DNA of 64,000 nt, from IMG/VR virus record IMGVR_UViG_3300028591_000088. One strand, given 5' to 3'. The position numbers and the translations under genes are program-made. Origin of the DNA: a virus. Its lineage: Duplodnaviria > Heunggongvirae > Uroviricota > Caudoviricetes. The notes under the pieces are model-generated. The model saw only the letters and a program-made list of their open reading frames with translations. It was not told the DNA's origin and did not search any database. Positions 9,669 through 9,755 of this stretch are shown here, one piece after another. Numbering within the stretch: the stretch's first letter is position 1; every line of letters begins with the position of its first letter.

Positions 9669-9755
9669 GTGTCTATGGCCGAGTGGTTGAAGGCAGCAGA
9701 CTGTTAATCTGCCGTGGAGAAATCCCCATCGTAGGTTCGATCCCTACTGGGCACG
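9669..9755 (+). tRNA. type-II (long variable arm) tRNA with anticodon loop ctGTTaa (GUU, Asn-like); possibly a Tyr(GUA)-derived variant
   Basis: Acceptor gtgtcta/tgggcac with two G-U wobbles. D-arm gccgagtggttgaaggc is typical of type-II tRNAs. Anticodon arm gcaga-ctgttaa-tctgc. Roughly 18-nt variable arm. T-arm gtaggttcgatccctac. Confidence 0.55.

Follow-up and report, generated by a model that had tools for sequence, protein, structure and literature searches.

Long-armed tRNAs with Asn and Gln anticodons in large phages are probable cognate isoacceptors built on a class-II-style core

By the textbook account, class-II tRNAs, which carry a long variable arm, are restricted to the Leu, Ser, bacterial Tyr and Sec isotypes. 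Here we describe two genes that combine this shape with other anticodons in a 64,000-nucleotide stretch of DNA from a virus of the Caudoviricetes (IMG/VR record IMGVR_UViG_3300028591_000088), the whole of which is referred to as the window. The tRNA with the Asn anticodon GUU lies at 9669-9755 and the tRNA with the Gln anticodon UUG at 22559-22648, both on the plus strand. An earlier, sequence-only reading of the window had called the two genes not standard, which our analysis bears out: they do have a class-II shape with Asn and Gln anticodons. It had placed the first gene correctly, while its coordinates for the second, 22561-22646, fell two bases short at each end. We conclude, from features of their sequences, that both genes probably encode functional elongator tRNAs that read AAY as Asn and CAA/CAG as Gln, that is, cognate isoacceptors with a class-II-style core, the rebuilt part being the D arm and the variable arm.

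The closest described relatives of the GUU tRNA are found in cultured phages. A blastn search against these with the GUU tRNA matched 46 records, and the same search with the UUG tRNA gave no match. In phage phiKZ, PHIKZ_t02 (87-89 nucleotides), annotated as 'tRNA-Asn', has the 5′ half UGGUAAG-UA-CCC-GAGUGGCAGCA-GGG-A-GCGGA-CUGUUAA-UCCGU and, after the anticodon arm, the 3′ half U-GGC-GAAA-GCC-CACC-GUAGG-UUCGAAU-CCUAC-CUUACCA-G-CCA, with U1-A72 and G73. The tRNA-Asn of Pseudomonas phage vB_PF_Y1-MI (85 nucleotides) also has U1-A72 and G73, and a tRNA-Lys(CUU) of Caulobacter phage CcrBL9 (87 nucleotides) has the same build. The window GUU tRNA resembles these genes in its 3-base-pair D stem, Ser-type D loop, G73 and length (85-89 nucleotides), and the phiKZ-type variable region, a GGC-GAAA-GCC hairpin followed by a CACC spacer, has the same architecture as its own. 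The blastn identity of the phiKZ copy, its homologues in phiKZ-like Pseudomonas phages and the CcrBL9 copy to the window gene is 78-81% over about 80% of the gene, and the Pseudomonas copies differ in having U1-A72 and an encoded CCA, whereas in the window copy the first pair is G1-C72 and CCA is not encoded. In the databases all of these copies are plainly named tRNA-Asn or tRNA-Lys, and we found no paper in the literature that remarks on their class-II shape. P. aeruginosa has no AsnRS and makes Asn-tRNA through GatCAB (10.1101/733030), the specificity of which depends on U1-A72 (PMC9976931); the phiKZ copy thus bears the mark that the Asn pathway of its host requires, and this mark has no role in Ser or Tyr identity. 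Furthermore, the phiKZ tRNAs as a group, rather than PHIKZ_t02 specifically, are expressed and co-sediment with 30S fractions by Grad-seq (PMC8545117).

Other systems in which tRNA shape and isotype part company differ from the window genes in several ways. The class switches of tRNA-Tyr and tRNA-Leu (PMC9976931; for the type I and type II tRNA-Leu of Streptomyces, PMC6614811) show one isotype in both shapes with one synthetase, but these isotypes are class II somewhere by default, and the papers describe no case of Asn, Gln, Lys or His acquiring a long arm. The nev-tRNAs of nematodes (PMC3333845) are similar in combining a class-II body with the anticodons of class-I amino acids (Gly, Ile); however, they are eukaryotic, accept Leu in vitro, as their body dictates, and represent a genuine mismatch, whereas the acceptor marks of the window tRNAs match the anticodon. 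The allo-tRNAs, the (8/4) tRNA-His, which occurs in phage tRNA clusters, and the selC* tRNA-Cys (Mukai et al., PMC5389517) have 8/4 or 9/3 branches, and their long D stem, capped by a tetraloop, is Sec-like; the discriminator of most allo-tRNAs is G73 or U73, and their presumed amino acid is Ser or Ala. Such branches and D stems are absent from both window tRNAs, which instead have the canonical 7/5 branch, a 3-base-pair D stem, an 11-nucleotide Ser-type D loop, discriminators that follow the anticodon and a family essentially confined to phages.

That identity can be moved between bodies is known from transplantation experiments. The anticodon and G73 are enough to confer Asn identity on a different tRNA body, A73 and U35 are critical for Tyr identity (PMC9976931), and a class-II tRNA-Ser amber suppressor was made Gln-accepting by two acceptor-stem changes, at 1-72 and 3-70 (Rogers and Soll, in PMC9976931). 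The last construct is like the window UUG tRNA in its Ser-like D and variable arms, U1-A72, G3-C70 and U35; it is, however, an E. coli laboratory tRNA, whereas the window gene has a natural anticodon, G2.U71 and A73. In the 596-kb genome of a Lak megaphage, 44 of 75 tRNAs were assigned 'unknown or mismatch isotypes' (10.1101/356790). Our searches of the literature outside subscription journals turned up no report of phage tRNAs for Asn, Gln, Lys or His with a class-II shape.

Both window genes are recognized as complete tRNAs. ARAGORN called a tRNA(gtt) of 88 nucleotides at 9669-9756 and a tRNA(ttg) of 91 nucleotides at 22559-22649, and the Rfam model RF00005 matched 9669-9755 with 56.0 bits (E = 7e-10) and 22559-22648 with 57.6 bits (E = 2.5e-10), in each case over the full model length and with E-values overall of about 1e-10 to 1e-12; the insertions relative to the model (14 and 19 nucleotides, respectively) fall exactly in the variable region. 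Each tRNA has a 7-base-pair acceptor stem, a 5-base-pair anticodon stem with a 7-nucleotide loop (U33, purine at 37), a T stem of 5 base pairs closing a UUCRANY loop, and a D loop containing GG, together with the two features that define class II, namely a stem-loop variable region of more than 10 nucleotides and a 3-base-pair D stem. The D loop of both genes has 11 nucleotides, GAGUGGYUGAA, a form typical of bacterial Ser and some Tyr tRNAs. Thus ARAGORN, Rfam and direct reading all agree with the D stem, gagtggytgaag loop, 5-7-5 anticodon hairpins, anticodons and long variable arms of the sequence-only reading. The Ser anticodons (NGA or GCU) and the complete Ser acceptor set G1-C72, G2-C71 and A3-U70 are absent from both tRNAs. 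Two other interpretations, one taking the extra hairpin for the anticodon arm proper and the other assuming an intron, were rejected on the basis of the hairpin loop of only 4 nucleotides, the position of the Rfam insertion in the variable region and the covariation of the standard arms.

The acceptor stem of the GUU tRNA is formed by GUGUCUA at 9669-9675 and its complement at 9748-9754 (GTGTCTA/TGGGCAC as DNA), giving G1-C72, U2-A71, G3-C70 and two G.U pairs. The D arm at 9678-9694 (GCC-GAGTGGTTGAA-GGC as DNA) was read from the sequence as a 3-base-pair stem, GCC/GGC, closing the 11-nucleotide loop GAGUGGUUGAA, which is of the Ser/Tyr type and has G15. It is followed by the anticodon arm GCAGA-CUGUUAA-UCUGC at 9696-9712, in which the anticodon occupies 9703-9705 and all five stem pairs covary, by the 18-nucleotide variable region CGU-GGA-GAAA-UCC-CCAUC at 9713-9730, by the T arm GUAGG-UUCGAUC-CCUAC at 9731-9747, also supported by covariation, and by the discriminator G73 at 9755, with no encoded CCA. 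The variable region (CGTGGAGAAATCCCCATC as DNA) forms a short hairpin with a GNRA-like tetraloop and a 3′ spacer of 4-5 nucleotides. With this region of 18 nucleotides (versus 4-5) and a D stem of three base pairs (versus four), the body is not that of a class-I tRNA. Its arm also lies outside the Ser type, which has at least 5 base pairs and a 3′ spacer of at most 2 nucleotides, since it has 3-4 base pairs and a spacer of 3-5. The Asn determinants G34, U35 and U36 with A37 (loop CUGUUAA) and G73 are all present. Of the Tyr features, the gene has the variable stem of about 3 base pairs, the 3′ spacer of 3-4 nucleotides and a Tyr-like anticodon stem (GCAGA/UCUGC, which we take to resemble that of E. 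coli tRNA-Tyr), whereas A73 and A36 are replaced by G73 and U36. The acceptor stem lacks the G2-C71 and A3-U70 pairs kept by phage Ser tRNAs, as well as U1-A72, the mark of the GatCAB route; it has G1-C72, as do 20 of 28 ordinary phage Asn tRNAs, which predicts direct charging by AsnRS and thus a host that has this enzyme.

In the UUG tRNA, identical or nearly identical copies of which occur in loci L048, L073, L140, L187 and others, the acceptor strand UGGGCGG at 22559-22565 pairs with 22641-22647 (TGGGCGG/CCGCCTA as DNA) to give U1-A72, G2.U71 and G3-C70. The D arm at 22568-22584 (GTC-GAGTGGCTGAA-GAC as DNA) has the stem GUC/GAC, with U11-A24, and the loop GAGUGGCUGAA, with G15, as read from the sequence. 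The anticodon arm UCAGA-CUUUGAC-UCUGA spans 22586-22602 (anticodon at 22593-22595), and the 21-nucleotide variable arm at 22603-22623 has a 6-base-pair stem and a single-nucleotide 3′ spacer, a Ser-like geometry. The T arm reads GCAGG-TTCGAAT-CCTGC as DNA, and the gene ends, without an encoded CCA, at the discriminator A73 (22648). The long variable arm and the 3-base-pair D stem again exclude a class-I body. Nevertheless, the Gln determinants U34, U35 and G36 (loop CUUUGAC) and the pairs U1-A72 and G3-C70 are present, the 2-71 pair being G.U and not G-C. The discriminator differs from G73 of E. coli tRNA-Gln but is that of 13 of 23 ordinary phage Gln tRNAs. A73 is shared with tRNA-Leu as well as with these ordinary phage Gln tRNAs, whereas the A15:U48 pair and D loop of the Leu type are absent, the gene having G15:C48.

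We investigated how widely such genes occur and collected 36 distinct long-armed GUU and 15-16 distinct long-armed UUG tRNAs from phage and metagenome contigs. In IMG/VR, a pattern comprising the D loop and anticodon loop retrieved 15 true tRNA(GUU) genes of 87-91 nucleotides and four tRNA(UUG) genes with the Ser-type D loop, and a fifth long-armed UUG gene, in L016, has a different D loop; the contigs measure 39-435 kb and nearly all of the genes lie within tRNA islands. A stricter pattern applied to metagenomes gave 113 loci, whose long-armed tRNAs with a Ser-type D loop comprise 77 distinct sequences; by locus, these are distributed over the anticodons GUU (Asn, 47 loci), UUU (Lys, 28), UUG (Gln, 19), GUG (His, 16) and CCA (Trp, 2). 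In contrast, the GUU pattern found only two real tRNAs among 53 matches in 185,579 bacterial and archaeal species represented by one genome each: one in a Hydrogenophaga metagenome-assembled genome, within a phage-like island of 17 tRNAs in 8 kb, and one a lone Ser(GCU)-like gene with GUU on a 7.9-kb contig of an alphaproteobacterial metagenome-assembled genome. The long-armed GUU family is thus essentially restricted to phages. Two members of the pool stand apart: a long-armed tRNA with the anticodon UUG at position 2894 of L148 has the acceptor strand GGAGAGG, G73 and a Ser-like body, and the gene at 167-251 of L114 has the anticodon GUU and a 7-base-pair variable stem and is closely homologous to tRNA-Ser(GCU). 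Suppressor tRNAs were seen in related islands, amber (CUA) in L017 and L019/L020 and ochre (UUA) in L025, and some phages carrying the long-armed GUU tRNA may therefore have recoded stop codons.

The fold of the family is supported by covariation. Among 17 distinct GUU members, pairing is 100% in the acceptor, D, anticodon and T helices, with compensatory changes at 18 of 20 pairs, and in the acceptor stem of the family at 7 of 7. The covariation score was 0.78 compared to 0.22 after shuffling, none of 500 shuffles reached 0.78, and the signal collapsed once the partners were slid by 1-3 columns. Support for the variable stem of the GUU family is moderate. It covaries (GGA/UCC, GGC/GCC, GAC/GUC), and 68% of cells are paired under the stated structure, while RNAalifold did not predict it owing to gaps in the alignment register; minimum-free-energy folding gives a median of 4 base pairs, of which covariation backs a 3-base-pair core, with a 3′ spacer of 3-4 nucleotides, a Tyr-like arrangement. 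Covariation is likewise seen in the variable stem of the UUG family.

We then asked which amino acid the acceptor ends indicate. The positions read by synthetases were tabulated for 877 distinct tRNAs, comprising all ARAGORN calls in the fetched loci, and the tabulated positions lay outside every search pattern. G73 is present in 34 of 36 long-armed GUU tRNAs and 25 of 28 ordinary Asn tRNAs, whereas all 24 Tyr tRNAs have A73; among the long-armed copies, 24 have G-C and 12 have U-A at 1-72, compared to 20 and 8 of the ordinary Asn tRNAs, and in Tyr this pair is mostly G-C within an acceptor beginning GGG. The 47 Ser tRNAs have G or U at 73, mostly G-C at 1-72, and almost always G2-C71 (45/47) and A3-U70 (43/47). 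G2-C71 occurs in 12 of the 36 long-armed GUU tRNAs; the window copy has U2-A71, so the Ser acceptor signature is absent from it. The 15 long-armed UUG tRNAs have A73 in 10 and U1-A72 in 11 cases, and G15:C48 in 12 of 16, the window copy included. Ordinary Gln(UUG) tRNAs (n = 23) carry A73 (13), G73 (6) or U73 (4) and U1-A72 in 19. The 45 Leu tRNAs, which are long-armed, have A73 in 43 cases, U1-A72 never and A15:U48 always; the Leu core determinant is therefore missing from the window UUG tRNA with its G15:C48.

The same pattern extends to other isotypes. Long-armed His tRNAs have C73 (13/13) and an encoded G-1 (13/14), Lys A73 (22/26), Trp G73 (7/7) and Thr U73 with C2-G71 (8/8); long-armed Pro, Glu, Cys and Ile tRNAs retain their usual acceptor ends, and a long-armed Met tRNA has the C1xA72 mismatch found in initiator tRNA. 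In connection with the His genes, we observed that the trinucleotide ATG precedes about 30 of 37 phage tRNA-His genes in the fetched loci; its G is the expected G-1, and the AT is conserved across diverse contigs. Where a locus carries both forms of tRNA-Asn, the 1-72 pair agrees between them in 12 of 14 cases, including three loci in which both have U-A, and N73 in 12 of 14; for loci with both Gln forms N73 agrees in 8 of 8, rare U73 and G73 variants included. Such host-specific tuning of the long-armed copy is sensible only if the same Asn or Gln machinery reads both forms. These data show that acceptor-end identity marks across the pool follow the anticodon.

The sequence-only reading had suggested typing the bodies with isotype-specific covariance models; such models would be pushed to Ser, Leu or Tyr by any long arm, whatever the true identity. 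Nearest-neighbour identity outside the D and variable arms proved too coarse, giving both Ser and Asn for the GUU family, and was replaced by a position-specific classifier of 20 classes, built from about 595 deduplicated ordinary phage tRNAs and blind to the anticodon and the variable arm (leave-one-out accuracy 0.67-0.71). It typed the window UUG body as Gln, with a margin of 8.5 nats when the D arm was included and 2.6 without it. For the window GUU body, the result was a near tie without the D arm, with Tyr on top and Asn 0.2 nats behind, and Asn fell 4.7 nats behind when the D arm was included. Neither Ser nor Leu was among the top six classes for either tRNA. With the D arm left out, 16 of the 36 members of the GUU family scored best as Asn and 8 as Tyr.

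The codons that these tRNAs would read have their standard meaning in the phage. We aligned the phage NrdD with 92 homologues, to which it is about 70% identical, and found that its 34 AAT codons align with N in 84% and its 14 AAC codons in 74%, and that its 19 CAA codons align with Q in 66% and its 9 CAG codons in 68%. There was no excess of Ser, Tyr or Leu at the AAY and CAR positions of NrdD relative to these homologues. The presence of AAY at Asn and of CAR at Gln positions indicates that the phage uses the standard code. In the open reading frames (ORFs) of the window (14,081 codons), AAT is the fourth commonest codon, at 45 per 1000, Asn and Gln codons together make up 9%, and CAA is preferred over CAG. 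None of the 20 tRNAs of the window is an ordinary Asn or Gln tRNA, and the long-armed copy is the sole tRNA(GUU) in 27 of 43 tRNA-rich loci, the window included, and the sole tRNA(UUG) in 8 of 13. The places of Asn and Gln in the tRNA complement of the phages are thus taken by the long-armed genes.

A different outcome was raised by the sequence-only reading, in which the tRNAs are missense tRNAs charged according to their body identity. In that case SerRS, or alternatively TyrRS (GUU) and LeuRS (UUG), would charge the class-II body, either fully or, in a tRNA of dual identity, alongside charging with the cognate amino acid, and Ser, Tyr or Leu would be inserted at Asn and Gln codons. We regard this as unlikely, but several observations favor it and weigh against cognate charging. 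Both genes combine a long variable arm with a Ser-like D arm and its loop GAGUGGYUGAAG. In the UUG tRNA the variable arm, with 6 base pairs and a 1-nucleotide spacer, falls within the Ser-type range. The GUU tRNA carries G73, and its body is placed in the Tyr class by the classifier. In addition, our search patterns demanded a Ser-type D loop, which biases the collection, although they left the acceptor end unconstrained. A long arm could also clash with AsnRS, a class-II synthetase that approaches the tRNA from the variable-loop side. Himeno et al. in 1990 reportedly turned tRNA-Tyr into a Ser acceptor by A73G and a longer variable arm, and by analogy the GUU tRNA, with its G73 and long arm that SerRS favors, resembles that construct. 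The anticodon plays no part in Ser identity, and mistranslation by Ser tRNAs whose anticodon has been altered does occur (PMC9976931); the allo-tRNAs (PMC5389517) and nev-tRNAs (PMC3333845) offer further precedents. Elsewhere in the pool, the L148 and L114 genes look like true Ser bodies and, unlike the window genes, may be true missense tRNAs, judging from their sequences. In the window genes themselves, however, U2-A71 of the GUU tRNA and U1-A72, G2.U71 and A73 of the UUG tRNA stand against the G1-C72, G2-C71 and A3-U70 that are near-invariable in the co-resident Ser tRNAs. Charging with Tyr is opposed by the A73 of every Tyr tRNA versus the G73 of nearly the whole GUU family, and charging with Leu by the invariant A15:U48 of Leu tRNAs versus G15:C48. 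That the discriminator and the 1-72 pair co-vary with those of the ordinary Asn or Gln tRNA of the same phage would have no rationale in a Ser, Tyr or Leu acceptor. Missense insertion would furthermore affect 9% of the codons of the phage, at conserved Asn and Gln positions, and would often be performed by the only phage tRNA for its codon box. Because the discriminator and first base pairs follow the isotype of the anticodon, the unusual isoacceptors that the sequence-only reading had named as an alternative are the interpretation we favor.

A non-translational role, in which uncharged tRNAs serve as decoys or sponges for anticodon nucleases or other defences, or as ligands of a phage protein of the Ro60/TROVE type, we consider improbable; anticodon-mutated decoys had been among the suggestions of the sequence-only reading. 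Host defences do cleave tRNAs, including the variable loop of tRNA-Tyr by Septu (PMC13096335); a TROVE/Ro60-vWA-like ORF (7189-9069) lies 600 nucleotides upstream of the GUU tRNA and recurs in diverged islands with this tRNA; and some loci have an ordinary tRNA for Asn or Gln as well, which makes the long-armed copy there appear superfluous. A decoy, however, needs only an anticodon loop, yet the discriminator, U1-A72 and G-1, which serve aminoacylation, are conserved and matched to the host, the 7-bp acceptor stem is perfect and shows compensatory evolution, the long-armed copy is the sole tRNA(GUU) in most islands, and phiKZ tRNAs are found in ribosomal fractions (PMC8545117). Very improbable, in our view, is an orthogonal pair, with the long arm serving as a handle for a phage synthetase or modification enzyme specific to phage tRNAs. 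The restriction of the scaffold to phages would fit, and synthetases, along with many translation genes, can be part of the genomes of huge phages (PMC7162821). Nonetheless, Pfam scans of 20 window proteins revealed no synthetase or tRNA-modifying enzyme, and the identity marks obey the rules of the host. We know of no synthetase that accompanies the long-armed tRNA in phiKZ. A pseudogene, an assembly error or a sequencing error at the anticodon has nothing in its favor but the oddity itself and can practically be dismissed: related phages have GTT and TTG at these positions, and not the GTA or Leu/Ser anticodons that the sequence-only reading had considered, the same anticodons recur in 36 and 15-16 distinct members from independent samples, and identical copies of the window GUU sequence exist in more than 12 independent contigs, with compensatory substitutions in every helix of the family.

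If the two genes are cognate isoacceptors, we infer that the host AsnRS would read G34-U35-U36 and G73 of the GUU tRNA, and that the host GlnRS, or GluRS followed by GatCAB, would read U35/G36 and the weak U1-A72 end of the UUG tRNA. The determinants of Asn and Gln identity would sit at the two tips of the L and would not necessarily be affected by a long variable arm, which projects from the elbow, and the tRNAs would serve two codon families that are in heavy demand in an AT-rich phage. The GUU tRNA probably derives from a phage tRNA-Tyr-like (or Ser-like) gene through changes at positions 36 and 73, a Tyr ancestry being suggested by its Tyr-like variable arm and anticodon stem and by the Asn values that these two positions now have. 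The remark that GUU is one nucleotide from the Tyr anticodon thus probably holds for ancestry but not for present identity, given G73 in place of A73. The probable origin of the UUG tRNA, as its sequence suggests, is the joining of a Gln-like acceptor, anticodon and T domain to a Ser-like module of D and variable arms.

As to why a class-II core was adopted, we infer that it likely makes phage tRNAs structurally distinct or sturdier, for instance against host enzymes that target tRNAs; robustness of under-modified phage tRNAs, escape from host defence or recognition by a phage factor are possible purposes. More specifically, the core might be a deliberate phage device instead of a neutral peculiarity, in which a Ser/Tyr-type module placed on Asn, Gln, Lys, His and other tRNAs provides a private pool that is charged by the host yet structurally distinguishable, an idea that we put forward tentatively and think doubtful rather than probable. 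Such a pool, if real, could escape host defences that cleave or modify tRNAs, remain untouched when the phage itself attacks the tRNAs of the host, or be handled by a phage factor, for which the co-located Ro60/TROVE-like protein is a candidate. In a variant of this idea, the Ser-like module would provide a controlled level of Ser mischarging.

The window has a low G+C content (31-38%), its large ORFs are all on the plus strand, and it encodes proteins of the phage replication type (NrdD, DnaB-like and superfamily 1 and 2 (SF1/SF2) helicases, a Toprim-domain protein, a ligase and RNase H). The tRNA island at 5.6-23.6 kb contains 20 tRNA genes and one transfer-messenger RNA (tmRNA) gene according to ARAGORN and Rfam. 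A megablast search of the island against cultured phages gave no match, and the phage is without a close cultured relative at the DNA level. The 20 proteins scanned with Pfam include every larger ORF between the tRNAs, and no CCA-adding, tRNA-repair or tRNA-modification enzyme and no synthetase was detected among them. The island is adjoined by a gene (3147-5600) for a P-type cation-transporting ATPase of 817 amino acids, with an E1-E2 ATPase domain and N- and C-terminal cation ATPase domains, for which tblastn gave distant, uninformative matches only. The 626-amino-acid protein encoded at 7189-9069 has DUF2828, DUF7788 and Ro60-vWA (TROVE-like) domains, and diverged phages with the long-armed GUU tRNA (L018, L019, L020, L131, L164, L225 and L236) encode homologues, of 31-51% identity, in their tRNA islands; bacterial Ro60 homologues have the tRNA-like Y RNAs as partners. 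The tmRNA gene, in the middle of the island at 20295-20668 (75 bits in Rfam), has the predicted tag AKVVVMTPRTVAIAA.

Several further tRNAs of the island are unusual. CCA is encoded in none of the 20 genes, and in each one displayed in full a C directly follows the discriminator, which may be a 3′-processing context; in the GUU and UUG tRNAs, the sequence past the discriminator is 'CTA'. A partial tRNA match at 13399-13461, just upstream of tRNA-Ile, was found by Rfam only (37.5 bits, model positions 5-66), without an ARAGORN call, and may be a degenerate or unusual tRNA. The second tRNA-Trp(CCA), at 15839-15912, has G33 (loop CGCCAAA) in place of the near-universal U33. The 93-nucleotide tRNA-Ser(UGA) at 16647-16739, which is also found at position 8567 of L073, has a D loop without GG (AAUUGCUA) and the T loop UUGGAGU with G56, and looks as if the elbow pair had been swapped, with C19-G56 replacing G19-C56. 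Enlarged variable regions were also seen in Thr(UGU) (12518-12600, 83 nucleotides), Pro(UGG) (21328-21412, 85 nucleotides, with a GC-UUCG-GC mini-hairpin) and Gly(UCC) (21811-21889, 79 nucleotides). In relatives, the enlarged class-I tRNAs include Glu (88 nucleotides), Lys (86), Met (85-86), Thr (85) and His (84), at positions 2494 and 12589 of L073, 5096 and 5260 of L024, and 2534 of L021, the Met tRNA having the initiator-like end C1xA72. All of these enlarged tRNAs, in the window and in relatives, keep their cognate acceptor marks.

Taken together, long-armed Asn and Gln tRNAs are a structural variant that is widespread in large phages and for which we found no earlier description. In phages, and essentially only there, a long arm is given to the normally class-I isotypes Asn, Gln, Lys, His, Trp, Thr, Pro, Glu, Cys, Ile and initiator Met, so that a conserved set of class-II-shaped tRNAs spans at least 11 isotypes beyond those of the textbooks, including a phiKZ tRNA that is annotated plainly as tRNA-Asn. 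This family offers an explanation for part of the 'isotype mismatch' calls in huge phages (10.1101/356790), and such calls should not be read straight as suppressor, missense or pseudo-tRNAs. The genes also constitute a natural experiment on the tolerance of AsnRS, GlnRS, LysRS, HisRS and GatCAB for a long arm, which bears on the design of orthogonal tRNAs. Why phages adopt the class-II scaffold is a testable question, for which phiKZ and P. aeruginosa provide a ready system.

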